From: Ramazzottius varieornatus
Taxonomy: Eukaryota > Animalia > Tardigrada
Direction of reading: 5' to 3'
DNA: 64,000 nt
Assembly (NCBI GenBank): GCA_001949185.1
Contig: BDGG01000010.1
Coordinates: forward strand, 28,394-92,393
Shown here: positions 313-10,919 of the stretch, in pieces
How positions within the stretch are numbered: position 1 is the first letter of the stretch
How the letters are laid out: each line of letters starts with the position of its first letter
Made by a program: the position numbers and the translations under genes
The notes under the pieces: model-generated
What the model was told of the DNA's origin: nothing
Database searches by the model: none
The model's input: only the letters and a program-made list of their open reading frames with translations

Positions 313-1217
313 CTAGACCAGAGCCATGGCTTCCAACAGTTCAGTGTAGACAGGAGATTTTTGATCTTTCAATTCTAACCAGGCCTCGCTTTTCATGACA
401 TCCTGGCGTCGGCTGACTATGTATCTTTCTGCGTCCGAACGAAGCGTTTCGTCCTTCACCTCCACAGCCAACAGGTAAATCTCCACCGCATTACTTGGAA
501 GTTTTCGGTTTTTCATCAGGAAGTATGACATATCCATTATATCCTGGACCTGCAAAACAAAAGCAGTTGAGGAAAAATGCAATCAAAGCTCTACGTGACA
601 AAAAGCTAAGCTGATCTAGATTCAAAGTGTGGGTCTTTAGACCGGAACTCTGGCCAGCGTGACATTACGCTCGGTTAATTGCCATGATACAGCAGTCTTT
701 TCCCATATTTTCGTTTGGTACGGGGTTGGGTGCAAACAGCACGGCTTGATTGACCTGGACGATCAAATCGAAACTTCCCTTAAGAGTTCGTACGTACCTG
801 GAAATGATGGGCAAGACTGTAGATATCCGTGCAAAAATGGTGGAACGCGGTGCGACGGTCCTTGATGATGTCACACGACCCAGTGTAAAGTGCGTAGAAG
901 AAGTTCTTCAGAGCGACGAATGGGAATTGTCGCACGAACTGCGCCACTTCCAAAGGAGCGCCATCGACCAACTCGACTTCCGGTGTCTTCCAGGCTTCCG
1001 ACATTACGGGACTGCGTGCAACCAGAGGTAACTTGTGGAGCTTGAAAGGAACACCATCAGAGGAGTGAAGTGTAACGTCAGAAAAGTCCTTCGAACACCA
1101 CAAGCTGTTCCACATCAGTCCGGCGTTCTTTTGGCATCGCTGACGCCCGCGCTCCACGTCCGAATCTCCTCCGTCGCACATCTTGCTCGTTCCCGGTGAT
1201 ATGGATCCTCTTGGCAT
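313..1217 (-). CDS. BTB/POZ (SPOP-like BTB-BACK) domain protein, 2 exons (1217-798, 549-313)
   Basis: BTB motifs FSDVTLHSSDG..FKLHKLPLVARSPVM and FFYALYTG. A phase-0 GT-AG intron at 550-797 joins a BACK-like tail. The start Met could be 1217 or 1181. Confidence 0.85.
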
Positions 1218-1841
1218 GCTGCCTTTCTTTACACTGCAATATACTAACATCACAATCGCCACTAAATAGTACACTACACACGAGGGAATCCCAAGCCATC
1301 CACTCCAAGGAGGAAAGAAAAAAATCTGCGGAAAACAGCGAAAAGATGATGACTTCCGGTGCGTAATTATCAGATCAACTAGCGCGTAGTGTCATTGCTG
1401 TGCATGGACTGTGGCCAATCAGAGCAAACCGCCAAGATCGCTAGCTGACGAAAACACAGAAAGCATCGAAGAGTTGAGTTAGCACCCAAAGACAAAGTTC
1501 ATTTATTATTGCTTGCAAGTAAAAGACCGGAATGTCAGAGAAAAGTACAAGATAGAGACTGTGCTAAGTTTGTAAAAGCGAAATGCTACACGGTAGAGTG
1601 ACACGACACTCGTACTGGTTCTTGAAAATTGCCAAATGCATGAAACTGATTGATGAGTAGGGCAAAAAAGCGACAAACAACCCCTTGAAACGAGCTGCGA
1701 GCGCGAAAAACTAGGGAGTGGAGGGAGTGAAGCCACTTTCTGACGCTCGTGGCTGTGCACTCGTGTTGGGGTTTCGCGCTATCGAGTGCAGTATCTGATC
1801 GCAAGCCTGACTTGAGTTTGAAGGTCGGCCTGAGTATAGAC

Positions 1842-1877
1842 TATAAATAGCAATTCACCACCCAATTAAACTCAGTT
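1842..1877 (+). promoter_or_regulatory. TATA box plus initiator core promoter of the peptidase gene
   Basis: TATAAATA at 1842-1849 and TCAGTT (arthropod-type Inr) at 1872-1877, about 30 nt apart. Followed by a 5'UTR intron at 1970-2075 (GTAAGT...TTTTTCAG|ATG). Confidence 0.7.
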
Positions 1878-2075
1878 GTCTTCTGTCCCGCTTCCAGAAT
1901 GTTATACGTGTTGCGATAGCTGTCAGAAACCTGTAAAATTCATATGATCTAATCTGTACTAAATCCGAGGTAAGTCAAAGCTTTGCTCCGCTCAGTGATG
2001 GGTGTGATTGACCTTTTCGGGAAAAGAAACTGTGATGATTTGCGGCTCTAATATTAGTGCCTCGTTTTTTTTCAG

Positions 2076-2471
2076 ATGTCTCGACTAACTCATGCTGAAG
2101 CTCTCAAGCGAGTTAACGCCGCCGGAATTAGTGTTTCGTCGTCTGGAAAGTGCAGTGACCGAGGGAACCCAAAGTGCACCTCACTGGACACGATCCTGGC
2201 CAAGACCATCGATGAGATCATCGCGTTCAAACAAAAGTCTGGAAAGGTGGTGACCATCACAGGAGGGACCGAGAAAGGCCACACAGACGGCACAAAGAGT
2301 CACTACAACGGTTACAAGCTAGACATCGCCATGGACCCGGGAGTTACGGACTATATTACCAAGAACTTTACCTACCTGGGGACAACGAACGGCGGAAAGT
2401 GGAAACAGTACAAAGATGGGACCAACATCTGGACCAACGAAGGAAGCCACTGGGATATTGTCATCGCTTGA
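2076..2471 (+). CDS. Microbial-type LAS/M15-like (Hedgehog/DD-peptidase fold) zinc peptidase; HGT candidate
   Basis: 131-aa ORF with SHxxGxxxD (SHYNGYKLD) and ExxH (EGSHWD) Zn-ligand motifs and ITGGTExGH. I recall this pattern from actinobacterial and fungal proteins. Confidence 0.8.
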   Translation: MSRLTHAEALKRVNAAGISVSSSGKCSDRGNPKCTSLDTILAKTIDEIIAFKQKSGKVVTITGGTEKGHTDGTKSHYNGYKLDIAMDPGVTDYITKNFTYLGTTNGGKWKQYKDGTNIWTNEGSHWDIVIA

Positions 2472-2687
2472 AGACCTCAGAAATTCGATAGCCAAACATT
2501 TCTTCACCATTCTGTTTTGCAGCGAACTTTAAGAGCGCGGCGGAAATCATCAAACTGTTTTCCTTCAACGATTTCGCACACTTGGGAAGAACTTGGGAAG
2601 GAGTAAAACCGTGCTCCGTCGACCATAAATGAACACAGTAACAGTTTGTTTTTCGGTGTTGATAAACATGTAGGGAAGGTTCGTTGT

Positions 2688-4350: not shown

Positions 4351-4686
4351 ATGCAGATCAAGAGTGTCCTGCTGTTGGCCGTCGTGGCCCTGTCCTGCGT
4401 CTTGGCCCTCGTGTCGGCCGGTCCGAAGCACCATACTCAACGGCCCAAGCGATCGTACAACTACTACGGTGATGACGATGGCTACGACATGGCCCGCATG
4501 CGTTACAACTACGGAGACGATGTGGACAGCCTCCCCATGGCCCGCCACCGACACGGCCATGGCCACGGAGATGACACCGACATGGCCGCCCAACACTACG
4601 GATACAACCGATACGGATACGGCGACGACGAGGACATGAAGAAACAGGCCGCCGAGATGGACCGTCAACACAAGAAGGGGGGATAG
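4351..4686 (+). CDS. Secreted Tyr/His/Asp-rich repeat precursor (111 aa)
   Basis: Signal peptide MQIKSVLLLAVVALSCVLALVSA, furin-type RPKR site and four (Y/H)GDD..M repeats. Codons end mostly in C/G. AATAAA at 4943-4948. Confidence 0.85.
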   Translation: MQIKSVLLLAVVALSCVLALVSAGPKHHTQRPKRSYNYYGDDDGYDMARMRYNYGDDVDSLPMARHRHGHGHGDDTDMAAQHYGYNRYGYGDDEDMKKQAAEMDRQHKKGG

Positions 4687-5113: not shown

Positions 5114-8100
5114 TTACAAACTTTCCAGCCTGGCTCTTTCGGCAGCTATGGCTTTAGTCACCATACTGTCCATCTTGTAGAACTCGGCCTTCTGCGTTCG
5201 GTCAGTCCTCATCAGGGTGATAAAGTTTAGAACGCGCAAGTTCTCCGCCTCGAAGTCGGGCGGAATCTATGGAAATTTTCAACGTTACTGATTTTAAATT
5301 GAACTGTCGATACGTTGCCAGAGAGATTTTGAAGTATCGTCGTACCTTTGGGCTGCAGGAAATCATCTGACCGCCGCTTTGTGCGAATGTCTGAGCGGCA
5401 TTGATCATCAGCTGGAACACTTGCCTTTCATGACTCGCATCCATACCCTACGAGGAAGAAAAGGGTGGAATTTAAAAGAAATCTCTAGCTGACTTCAGTG
5501 GATGTGCATTGCCAAGGCAAGCAAACTTGAGAAGATCGTTTCCCCCAAGTGGCGCATGATCTCAGCCAACAACAGGACAGCGAGCGCCACTTGGAAAAAC
5601 GATCTTATGGAGTTTGTTTCCCCAAGTGGCGCGCACTTTCAGCCAATAACAGACTAATAATTCCCATTACTTGCCTGGTTGATCTCGTCAACTATCCTGA
5701 AAGGCGCATCCGACCTCCTTTGAAGAGCCAAGAGGAAGACGGCTGTGGCGACCACCCTTTGGCCGCCACTTTGTTGATTGGGACGAAGCTCTTCCTCCTC
5801 ATCGCCTTCCCGGAACTTTACCTGTAAAAAGAAAGAACAATGAGGCTTTGTTCATTGCGCGGTCAGAAAGGGCAACGGACCTTCAGTTTCAGGCCGTATT
5901 GGTCGTACTCAAGCGGGTCCTGAGGTTGCACCAGCTGGACGCTGCCGCTGTAGTCCATTTCGTTCAGCATGTTACTGAAAGACTTGTTGATGACGTCAAT
6001 GTCATTCTGCAGCTTGGACAGCCACTGGGTCCGGAGGGCGGTCTGTGAGAGTTGCAAAACTCTTAGCTTGAATTCGAGGTTCTGTTTGTCTCGAACAAAC
6101 TCCTCTTGTTTCTTGTTCTGCTCAAGCGTTTGAGACTGAACATCACTCGAGTTCACTTTGTCGGTAGCCGAGGCCATGATGGTTGTGTGGAGGGTCCGAA
6201 GCTCTTTGGAGAGCGCGGCGGGCGTCCTCAAGGAACCGAGCTGCTGGAAGATCTGGAAAACAACGATGAGTGTTCTTTTGTAATTATCTGACTCAGAGGA
6301 ATTTTGACTGAGAAGTGTCAGACGTCGGCAGTAAACGTCGGCCAAATCGGCTTCCCACGTGGCGCACGGTCTCAAACACCTGCAGCGTGGACATGCGCCA
6401 CTTGAGAACACAACCTGGGAAAAATCATATTCGGACGTCTCATATTGAGAAATAATTAAAATGATTGTTAATTTCACAAAGTACACGCAGTTTGCCTAAT
6501 TATCGGTCGGGACAAAATTACCGGCCACCGGCCCAGATCGGCACTGCATCGATTGATTGGTTTTATTGCTCAACTTGAGCTGGCAACTGCCGTTTTCGGT
6601 CGGTGGCCGGTAGTTTTTGACCCGGCCGATAACTAGACAAGCTGCGTGATACTGTGACCATTTTCAAAAGAAAGTACTCGTTTGTAAGAAAGCCAAACTA
6701 CAAGTACAAAGTGTTTAAATACAAAATATACGTTGCCTACGTTTCTGACGTCTCCAGAGCTGCGCTCTCGATCGCAGAAGAGTTCCTTGGTCAGCGTTCG
6801 AGCTTCCTGCTTTCTTCCGTTCAGGTCTGCTTCGAGCTCGTTCGATTGGTCTATCAACTTGTCCACAACGGACTTAGTTTCAATCTTCTTTAGGCCATAC
6901 TTCATGAGGCGAGCGTGGGACCTTGAAGTGTGGAGGAGAAGACCCGTCTTCTTCACCACTTCACCGATAACATCTTGTAGTGCCTTAGTTGTTTCCTGCA
7001 GAGGAAAGTAGCAGATCACTGCTAGTTACTAACTTCATGCGCGACCATCACAAAACCTCTCAAAGGTACCTGTAGTTTTGCAAGAGGAGTATGAGCACCG
7101 TTTTCACTGGCACACAGCAACTTCAGCCGCAATCGATTTTTCTCTCGAATTTCTCTAGCCATTTCTTGCAAACGGACCAGCGAAGGCTTCAAGTCCACAT
7201 GCGACATGTTATGAATTCTGAAAAGGGAACGAAAAGCGTCAGCTTTAAGTGAGCAAAAGTAAAGATAGGACGTGGGGATTCGAACCAGCTCGTTTACTCC
7301 AGTGACGCACGTTATAGCTATGAATAGCTGGACACGTGCGCCACTTGAGAAAGCGATCTGGTTCAATTCATCTGCATACTTTCAAATAAAAATGTAAATC
7401 CGACGATCATAACAGAAAAATACTATGAAAATAAACGTGCCAAATAAAATTCAGTTCGATTCCATGACTGAGGCGCTCACTTGGTCTGCAAGGTGGCTAT
7501 ATTTCGTGTGACCTCTTCGAGTTCCTCGAGGTCGCTGCTGATCTTTTGGCTATCGTCCTCCAGAACCGCAATTTCATCGTACAAATCTGCGATCTTAGTT
7601 TCGAGCTCCCTCAGGTAGTCTTTGTACTTGTTCCTTTCGGCTTCCTTGTCATCAAACTGCGTGTTCATTTCTTGAAGCCTTTCGTTCTGTGTGGCAACGT
7701 CAGCGGTCTCATACTTCAGTAAATGAGCCTCCTTCAACGGCTGCTCGTGGATCCTTACTTCATCACTATTCACTTTGACGACCTCGTACTACAAAAATAC
7801 CAAATGAATTCCTATGATCTGAATAACTTTTATCGCCTCAATTTGAAGGCAAAAAAAGCAACAGAAAACGAACATTTCGGTTGGAGGTACAGAAACATTC
7901 AAAGTTATTTTTACCAGGTTTTGGTCAGTGCAGAACACCAGTCGGTCTTTCTCAGCACTGGCGGTCTTCCAGTAATCGATGACGATGGGTACTGAGCTAG
8001 TTTTGGGTGGTTTTTTGGTGAAGAGAATGGCCTGCGAGGTGAAGGCTTGCTGCAAGTACTGCTTCACCAAAGGTGGCGCGTCGTACATCTTGTCCAGCAC

Positions 8101-10919
8101 GGTGGAGAAGCCATACCGGCGATAATTCCTACAAGACAAACCTCGTCAGTAGTTGGGAGCTCGACACACAAAGTCGACCAACACTTTCCCAGGTGGCGTA
8201 CGCCCTCAGCCAAAGTCAATAACTACGTGCGTCACTTGAAAAAACAATCTCGTCGACTTTGTCTGCCGCGCTCACATTTCTCACCAGAATCCAGAGTAAG
8301 TTCTTGCATTGCGGAAGTGGCTCTACAGTTCATCGAAAATGGGTCTCAGTATCTAATCTGGTGAACTTACGCCAAGGTATCGTCGTCTAAAGGTGGCATG
8401 TCGATCCGGCTGCGCATGAACGCGATGGAGATCTTGCGTCCTTCTCGGACATTAAATCTCTGCATCATCGCGTTGCACGTCTCTGGAGAGTCCACCAGGA
8501 AAGACCGAAGAGTCTTGTAGCCAAAGATGGTCTCCATCGCCTTGATCGACGTGGCATCGTTGTACTTATCTTTCGGCCGAATCTGAAAAACCAAACCAGT
8601 TAACAAACGAATTCGGCATGAACACTCAACAAGATTATGTCCGAAGTGGCGCACGGTATCAGTGAGTTTGGACTTGGACAAACTCGACAAGATCGTATAA
8701 CTCAGTGGTACAAGCCTCCAGCGAGGTTACGGACAGCGTCTGCCACTTTGGATAACAACCCCTCAACTTCATTGGCCAAGCTCCCAAATATAAGTTTCAT
8801 ATTTGGTACTCCACAATGATATTTTCAAAGTTAGGGACAAATTAGGGCTTCGCTTACATGGAGAAACAAAGGACCATACACGTGGCCCTCAAAGGTTTCC
8901 GTTGCCGTACTAATTGCCTCCCACACTTTGAACACATCCTCACTCAAATGCCCGTCCCCACGTAGGTCTTCCAGTCTCCTTCTGCGATGGTGATTCGTGC
9001 CGGGAATCTTCCTCAACTCCCGTGCGATGCCTACAGCAACAACAAGAAACGATTGCGTTGAAATCAGAATGGAAAATTCTTTCGGAGACTTCACCTTTGC
9101 AAGCGTCCTCCATTTTCTTCAGTTCTTTTTTAGCTGTATCCCGTTCTTCTTCCTTCGACTCCAAGCTCGCCTTCAACTCTGCCATTTCTCTGTCTTTCTC
9201 ACTCTTTCTCTGCGTCAGGGACTCCTTCGATGCCCTCTGCGTCAGCGTGGCATTTTCTCGAGAGAGTTCTTCCCTCACTTCGGTCAATTCCTGTTCGGGG
9301 CTGTCACTCAGCGTCAGGTCCGATAGCTCGTTCATTTGACGCTGCAGCACCTCCACCGCTCCTTGCATATCACCACTTATCCTGGACTGTTGCTCCAGGT
9401 ACTCTAGAGCGGTTCGAACATTTCCGGAAGGCGGGAACTCAGGTGGCTTCTCTCGTAAAGATTTGGGGATTGTCTTGAAAGCCAGATAGCACGAGTCCGT
9501 CGCCGCTTTCCACCCTTGGAAGTTCTGTTGTTCTCTAGCCAAGTCCTGCTGCAGCGCTACCTTCTCGCTCTCTGAAGCATGAATACTCTACAAAAGAAAG
9601 AAACCTCAACGACGCGTTTGAGAGCTCGACAAACAGAACCCACAAGATCAATTATCAAGTAGCGCACACTTCCAGCTAACAAATATAGGAACGTGCGCCA
9701 TCGAGAAAGAGGATCTTATCTAGCTTTCCAACTGGCGCACGCTTCCTGCCTATATTACCGAAAACATACGCCACTTGGAGAAAACAGTCCCCGCTTATGT
9801 TGAGGTGAACCTAAAGCTTACCTGGATAAGAAGTTTCAGCCGGACAGCCATCATCTTCTCAAACCTCTCGCTTCTTTCGCGTAGCTTCTTGGCTGCTTTT
9901 TCGGTTTCACTCTGCTTTAGAATCTGCGGTTCGTTAGCGTCTCTCATTTCTCTAAGCTTGTTGTCGGTGTCGATCCACGATTTCCGTCGTTCGACGAGCT
10001 CGTTGTGCATCTCCCACACTTCTTTTGCCAGCTACAAAAAACACTCTAGGCTGCAAAGCCTCGGCGAAGCGAAGGAGGAGGAGCAGGTACCGATTGTTCG
10101 GCGCATTTGAGCAATTCGAAAGGTTTGAGATCGAAAAGATCGGCAATGCGATCTTGCAACAGGAACAAAGACAGGTTTTCCGGCACAATCCGAAATTCCT
10201 CTTTCAGTCGAGCACGGTACTCATGGAACTTTTTTGGTTTTCCGTTGATGAAAAACTCATTGTTTGGAGTTCTTTCATTCTTGGATTGCCTGTAGATGGT
10301 TCGTGCGAAACGAGTTTGTCCTTTAGGATGATCCGGATTATGTCTGGAAGAAAGGACCACTTAATCGGCGTTTCTATGTGCATGTCGCCTGAAACAGCGG
10401 TGCGCAAGCACGTTGACACAACCTACACCGCGCGCTATTACGCACAAAGCAAACGTACGCAACATGCAGACATGGACTTACGTACAAAGTCAGTTCGATT
10501 TCTGCTCGGTCGATTCCCGCGCCTCGTTTGACCAAGTCCCCATATACATTTCCCCGTCTCAAGAACTTGGCGCGTGATCCACAACACAACGCAATTGCGT
10601 TGACGATGGAGCTTTTCCCAAAGCCATTTGGTCCGGAGATGATATTGATGGATGGCTCAAAATAGAAATAGAGTGGAGCTGGAGCTTTCCGGCTACTTGG
10701 ACCAGGCTGTGTCTCGCCAAAAGTTCTGGAAAACAATTCGTAGTCGTGGGTCAGTCATTTACACACGAAGAAGTAGACTCACAGAAAGTTTCTGATGGCA
10801 AGCCGTTTGATAGCGCCTTTCTTGAATACAGGGGAGGAATGTATGAACAATTTGATGTCTCCTTTAGTGTCCACATCGTCGTCCGCTTCCATGGGCAGTG
10901 TGCCGTTCCCCTCCTCCAT
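5114..10919 (-). CDS. SMC5: Structural maintenance of chromosomes protein 5, about 15 exons
   Basis: N-terminal GAIKRLAIRNFLTF, Walker A GPNGFGKS, NLSLFLLQDR, coiled coils, hinge (HVYGP; YGF..LDKMYDAP), signature QSGGQR and Walker B/D-loop FRIVDEINQGMD. Stop at 5114-5116. Confidence 0.9.
5532..9788. repeat. ~80-bp hairpin repeat (AAGTGGCGCA...TGCGCCACTT) in six SMC5 introns
   Basis: Copies at about 5532-5636, 6345-6412, 7289-7359, 8183-8250, 8631-8757 and 9644-9788, all intronic. Confidence 0.85.
6496..6636. mobile_element. Palindromic MITE-like element in an SMC5 intron
   Basis: ~40-bp imperfect terminal inverted repeats CTAATTATCGGTCGGGACAAAATTACCGGCCACCG / CGGTGGCCGGTAGTTTTTGACCCGGCCGATAACTAG. 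Confidence 0.6.

Follow-up and report, generated by a model that had tools for sequence, protein, structure and literature searches.

The window analysed here, a stretch of 64,000 nucleotides (nt) on the forward strand of contig BDGG01000010.1 of the tardigrade Ramazzottius varieornatus, whose numbering is used for all positions below, carries a small gene of the Peti family that is a genuine, expressed and spliced animal gene (Table 1). Its product is equal in length to RvPeti (ATPM5, RvY_14254) of the same species and 79% identical to it without gaps, and the residues H69, H76, K81, D83, E122, H125 and D127 stand, all seven of them, at identical positions in both proteins. By its sequence the gene is the RvPeti ortholog; RvPeti has already been described as a candidate for horizontal gene transfer (HGT) and characterised biochemically. 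Neither protein has a signal peptide, and the window holds a single Peti-type gene copy.

Table 1. Features of the Peti locus and of its divergent neighbour, in window coordinates
Feature	Position	Strand	Basis or remark
TATA box	1842..1849	+	TATAAATA at 1842; first T 32 nt 5′ of the mapped transcript end
Initiator (Inr) TCAGTT	1872..1877	+	transcript 5′ end is the A at 1874
Non-coding exon 1, 96 nt, with two upstream open reading frames (uORFs)	1874..1969	+	contigs of sequencing runs, and sequence
5′ untranslated region (UTR) intron, GT-AG spliceosomal, 106 nt	1970..2075	+	AG directly adjoins the ATG at 2076
Coding sequence (CDS), intronless, 131 amino acids (aa), Peti/ATPM5 family	2076..2471	+	sequence; identity with RvPeti
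3′UTR	2472..2682	+	furthest reach of contigs from presumed RNA runs; N gap at 2688-2737 beyond
BTB(-BACK-like) gene, divergent neighbour	313..1250	-	PF00651, E 6.5e-7; PF07707, E 0.0066, below cut-off

Eight of the 24 sequencing runs listed were compared with the window, through their contigs; the division of these runs into RNA and DNA is a guess, none being recorded as RNA, and its backing consists only of spliced joints and an adaptor. The joint 1969/2076, which the initial annotation had proposed to look for, is found in contigs of all five presumed RNA runs (X5, X6, X7, X11 and X14, from five studies), while the intron is retained in the presumed DNA runs X1 and X2 and in X4, of unknown kind. 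In X11 and X14 a template-switch adaptor forms a loose end at 1874, and the spliced contigs have their 3′ ends between 2657 and 2682. The TATA box, the TCAGTT element, the 106-nt intron, the ATG and the 131-codon CDS, all of them read at first from the bare sequence, lie exactly where they had been placed. The combined TATA-plus-Inr pattern, formulated only once the site was known, has a single occurrence in the window, where 100 first-order Markov resamples would lead one to expect 0.14. The spliced intron, the mapped 5′ end and the RvPeti counterpart indicate integration into the host genome and expression by host signals. The spliced leader offers no in-frame upstream ATG, its uORFs having only 6 codons (from 1899) and 2 codons (from 1944), which makes the absence of a signal peptide, likewise noticed at the outset, a real property of the protein; an alternative N-terminal signal peptide encoded by exon 1 was considered and is ruled out by this same leader. 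The two uORFs could themselves damp translation.

The metal site can be read from RvPeti, for which a preprint (bioRxiv 10.64898/2026.10.27.762089) reports a crystal structure at 1.35 Å, with H76, D83 and D127 as metal ligands and E122 and H125 in the second shell, as well as the binding of zinc (Zn) and manganese (Mn). The window protein would accordingly be expected to use H76, D83 and D127 as ligands, with H69, K81, E122 and H125 as second shell. The motifs HxxGxxxD and ExxH, which the initial annotation had recognised and whose residues it took for the Zn ligands, are indeed present, as H76-x2-G79-x3-D83 and E122-x2-H125; H76 and D83 keep that role, whereas in RvPeti E122 and H125 belong to the second shell and the third ligand is D127. 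According to the same preprint, RvPeti cleaves casein weakly and in a Zn-dependent manner, with an activity more than 10 times below that of trypsin, which is gone in the ligand mutants and of which about two-thirds is left in H69A, E122A and H125A; it is inactive on elastin, collagen, Gly3 and muramyl dipeptide. The assay on muramyl dipeptide was run in 50 mM phosphate with 10 µM metal, conditions under which free zinc may have been scarce. The purified protein held a light metal modelled as magnesium (Mg), bound tartrate in the presence of Mn and showed trace esterase activity. The preprint also reports that the gene is highly expressed in active as well as dried animals, presents the gene as an HGT candidate, calls the fold novel, leaves the substrate open, and cites Tanaka 2015 for the absence of mitochondrial targeting; in that paper (PMC4326354) mitochondrial localisation is given for only two of six candidates. 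In the main text of the preprint the terms M15, LAS, VanX, hedgehog and intron do not occur. Among the papers listed on tardigrades, HGT and peptidoglycan (15 of 19), it is, going by titles and the beginnings of abstracts, the only one that concerns the gene. RvY_14254 was not found among the 8,991 rows listed of the gene table of Hashimoto 2016, nor was there a match in 12 of the 27 supplements of Yoshida 2017.

The structure model of the window protein (predicted local distance difference test, pLDDT, 94) has three helices and six strands of at least three residues, in a compact single domain like that of RvPeti, with its three helices and seven-stranded sheet. Hedgehog is the best of the structural matches to this model, and the model has the sheet-and-helix topology common to ShhN, MepA, the DD-peptidase and VanX. 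A zinc hydrolase with a predicted Hedgehog/DD-peptidase (LAS, M15-like) fold is therefore supported, and the LAS fold anticipated in the initial annotation agrees with the prediction. Of the two zinc motifs of this fold, H-x6-D and H-x-H (PMC6027127), the first is present as H76/D83, aligned to the Shh motif and with both residues acting as ligands in RvPeti, whereas the second, with its His ligand, is not: the protein has H125-W-D127, and Asp occupies this position in 403 of 404 family cores. The N-terminal domains of Shh, Ihh and Dhh are 13-18% identical to the window protein, and differ from it in the third ligand (His in H-x-H against Asp in H-x-D), in the spacing from Glu to His (4 against 3), and in having a Hint domain and a signal peptide, both of which it lacks. 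A derivation of the gene from an animal hedgehog was considered and rejected, since the 13-18% identity to Hedgehog stands against 45-56% to bacterial members.

The M15/M74 peptidases (Streptomyces albus G DD-peptidase 1lbu, VanX, VanY/LdcB, Ply500 and MepA) have His-His-Asp ligands in place of the His-Asp-Asp seen here, and they cleave peptidoglycan, an activity that for the window protein is only predicted. In M15B/M15D enzymes (VanY/VanX type) the third zinc ligand is the histidine of ExxH. As in RvPeti this ligand is D127, and H125A retains most of its casein activity, the protein is not a VanX/VanY-type member, and this part of the initial annotation has to be given up. With limits of E 1 for the protein and E 0.5 for 63 family members, Pfam gave no M15/VanY match, and hhalign against four near-identical M15_3 domains gave none either. 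The first motif of M23 peptidases is H-x3-D, against H-x6-D in the window protein. The preprint compares RvPeti with precisely these peptidases (pseudoalterin, LytM), which share with it an open groove holding a LAS-type zinc site, although by the preprint's own account the topology differs; no M23 protein was recognised among the structural matches listed, which leaves room for M23. At E 0.001 neither PDB nor BFVD yielded a Foldseek match, a single-sequence PDB search returned only chance pectate-lyase matches, and Pfam, NCBIfam and PHROGs assigned no family to the protein.

The Peti family comprises 2,035 representatives at E 0.001, and eight site residues are near-invariant in its 404 full-length cores (of 421 matches). 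Most bacterial members have, by eye, a signal-peptide-like N-terminus. In a scan of 150 homologs, 137 had no Pfam match at E 1e-4, and the domains encountered were PG_binding_1 (in 5), a pilin domain (in 3) and, once each, SH3_3, WXG100, C39, PAN and B-lectin. Bacterial gene context was taken from the best 80 of 595 confirmed loci, and in 13 of these 80 there is a PG_binding_1 domain, Pfam-confirmed in every case and in 4 of them part of one protein with the Peti domain. The background of 37 such genes in 34.6 Mb (five of these genomes) would lead one to expect about 0.7 for 80 loci, each 8.4 kb long. Ten of the 13 are from Streptomyces, so the independent events would be nearer five or six; the others include Ktedonobacterales, with a fusion, and Deinococcus, which has two PG-binding genes, one of them the immediate upstream neighbour of the Peti gene. 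A gene for an amidase, an M15 or MepA-like enzyme or a lytic transglycosylase adjoins Peti at nine loci or more. Nearest neighbours were scanned at 39 loci of the set, and across all 80 only PG-binding and M15 domains were sought; most of the 80 have no conserved neighbour. This context favours peptidoglycan as the substrate.

Several arrangements within the family may be recorded alongside. At one Streptomyces locus (L064:436-4387, + strand) an Amidase_2, a MepA-like (M74) and a Peti protein follow in tandem, each fused to PG_binding_1 repeats. P0181 and P0122 have a C-terminal Peti domain behind WXG100 (by Pfam in P0181, by a similar N-terminus in P0122), and WXG100 followed by a C-terminal domain is how type VII-secreted antibacterial effectors are built. 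In L082:3539-4366 (+ strand), P0165, P0228 and P0234, Peti follows an N-terminus resembling a pilin, assigned to T4SS_pilin by Pfam in the three proteins and judged by eye in L082; this suggests a surface-displayed form in host-attached bacteria. The secreted, eukaryote-type P0174, P0196 (Owenia), P0159 (Liolophura), P0130, P0184, P0199 and P0229 have Cys-rich repeats at the N-terminus that end in G-L-C-x-G...R-C-C, possibly a wall-binding module, for which two of the proteins were scanned with no Pfam match at E 0.01. Distant relatives (L081:4443-5297 and 7740-10061) are found in long proteins beside a terminase on a large AT-rich phage contig, with the motif H-x2-G-Y-K-x-D but a His-x-Asp end. 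An endolysin role found no support, as the phage collection gave no match and only one of 26 viral stretches held a relative, distant and by non-lysis-looking genes. Plasmid relatives amount to 39 records, the best 20 of which are all hypothetical or unannotated; a search of longer proteins gave 2 matches, and metagenome contigs held no close relative, only 3 loci at 35-44% identity.

What emerges is a signal-less zinc hydrolase of the Peti family, probably of microbial origin, that would cleave a bond in peptidoglycan stem peptides or their fragments, a reading which we hold to be about evenly poised. By analogy with LAS enzymes, Zn would polarise the scissile carbonyl, E122 (comparable to Shh E177), placed by H125 (comparable to Shh H181), would activate the water, and H69 and K81 would steady the intermediate or the substrate carboxylate. 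Because the protein lacks a signal peptide and one of the two family Cys pairs, it would presumably act in the cytosol, with imported wall fragments or bacteria inside the cell as its targets, or else be exported non-classically. Three observations pull the other way: the negative result of the preprint on muramyl dipeptide, the mildness of the E122A effect on casein, for which casein may merely be a poor reporter, and the loss of an R-x-D loop specifically in tardigrades. This last loss, together with those of the Cys pair and of the signal peptide, and with the high expression reported for active and dried animals, would also suit an intracellular Zn peptidase repurposed for endogenous proteins or peptides of the animal, such as during stress; the casein cleavage that depends on Zn and on the His-Asp-Asp ligands in the preprint also speaks for it, but its feebleness beside trypsin, its near indifference to E122, H125 and H69, and a family context that points to cell walls make such a role possible rather than probable. 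More doubtful still is a role in metal-dependent binding or in the hydrolysis of small molecules, with no protease function, comparable to the zinc site of Hedgehog: Hedgehog as the best structural match, and the Mg-like metal, tartrate and trace esterase of RvPeti, speak for it, whereas the near-invariance of the eight site residues across 404 sequences and the loss of casein activity in the RvPeti ligand mutants speak against it.

As to origin, acquisition of the Peti gene from a microbe is the likeliest reading, and a fairly confident one. It was compared with inheritance from an early animal or eukaryote followed by loss in most lineages, which we consider unlikely. The family is mainly microbial, with bacterial and fungal members as the initial annotation had stated, and it also occurs in animals. 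With 20 representatives looked up by choice, the named eukaryotic homologs include a fly (Bradysia), a flatworm (Macrostomum), a chiton (Liolophura) and an annelid (Owenia), besides the fungi Ceratobasidium, Coprinopsis, Podila and Verticillium, and the preprint reports a homolog in Folsomia, a distribution that favours vertical descent. Three trees were built, from 108, 56 and 36 rows of 130-131 columns; the two smaller sets had been picked for label or diversity. The tardigrade proteins form a strong clade in all three and animal sequences are scattered, but the sister of the tardigrades changes, from P0193/P0217 (89) to P0232 (93/89) and Thermosporothrix (92/6) as the set shrinks, so that no donor is resolved. 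Approximately unbiased (AU) tests on the 56- and 36-row sets reject neither a single animal clade (p 0.143) nor a single eukaryote clade (p 0.118), and to this extent the HGT origin first proposed is left short of proof; the constrained trees are nevertheless 26 and 29 log-likelihood units worse, and the animal homologs, 37-51% identical to the window protein, are no closer to it than the bacterial ones. Unlike the other animal copies, moreover, the tardigrade proteins have neither a signal peptide nor the C57/C89 pair, and they have their signal-less start and K57/G89 in common with P0232, their sister in one tree.

That the gene is a bacterial contaminant, or the product of a chimeric assembly join, is very improbable. 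The spliceosomal intron is removed in five studies, the transcript begins at the TATA/Inr promoter, and the 79%-identical counterpart sits on a 1.85-Mb R. varieornatus contig. What nourishes the suspicion is the assembly on either side, namely the N gap from 2688 and the junction with the BTB gene. The BTB gene is genuine, as had been claimed, and its own intron (about 550-797) is joined out in X5, X11 and X14, but no independent contig bridges the two genes: in both DNA runs the gene-bearing contig (1575-2687, depth 22-31) touches the BTB side only by a 30-nt overlap at a branch at 1604, and depth drops about threefold there, from 72-76 on the left to 19-31 on the right, so that the join rests on the assembly of the window.

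In a wider frame, Peti could be a His-Asp-Asp branch of the Hedgehog/DD-peptidase superfamily that has so far escaped recognition, nearer in shape to Hedgehog than to any solved bacterial peptidase. On this view it would cut peptidoglycan, fungi and no fewer than five animal lineages would have captured it in repeated events, and only tardigrades would keep it as a signal-less, intracellular form that is antibacterial or clears wall fragments; taken as a whole, this picture is speculative and more likely wrong than right. Laterally acquired peptidoglycan hydrolases of eukaryotes, such as the NlpC/P60 enzymes of Trichomonas (PMC6299479) and a cross-domain lysozyme family (PMC4241558), are reported, like Peti, as bacterial wall-enzyme families with a patchy presence in eukaryotes; they differ in their folds and in that their antibacterial activity is demonstrated, and the Trichomonas enzymes are secreted, whereas the window protein has no signal peptide. 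The reassignment of the fold to Hedgehog/DD-peptidase and the cell-wall gene context are what is new beyond the preprint. This placement and the wall-hydrolase neighbours lead to a short list of substrates (D-Ala-D-Ala, D-Ala-meso-diaminopimelate (mDAP) cross-links, mDAP-D-Ala and sacculi), with which the substrate question left by the preprint becomes a specific test. Should one of them be cleaved, Peti would constitute a new family of 14-kDa peptidoglycan hydrolases whose His-Asp-Asp zinc site is unusual; it would also be a structural relative of Hedgehog with enzymatic activity, and likely a further case of eukaryotes borrowing antibacterial enzymes.

Two other observations concern the surroundings of the gene. 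Contigs of seven runs depart from the window at 1604 into a different sequence that the window does not contain; the BTB side may be multi-copy, or a structural variant may lie beside the gene. Further on, an intronless open reading frame at 4351-4686 (+ strand, 111 aa), with no Pfam match above cut-off, shows a signal-peptide-like start, Tyr-Gly-Asp-Asp-x-Asp-Met-Ala repeats, His-Gly runs and basic sites, and from these features could encode a secreted structural protein or a peptide precursor.
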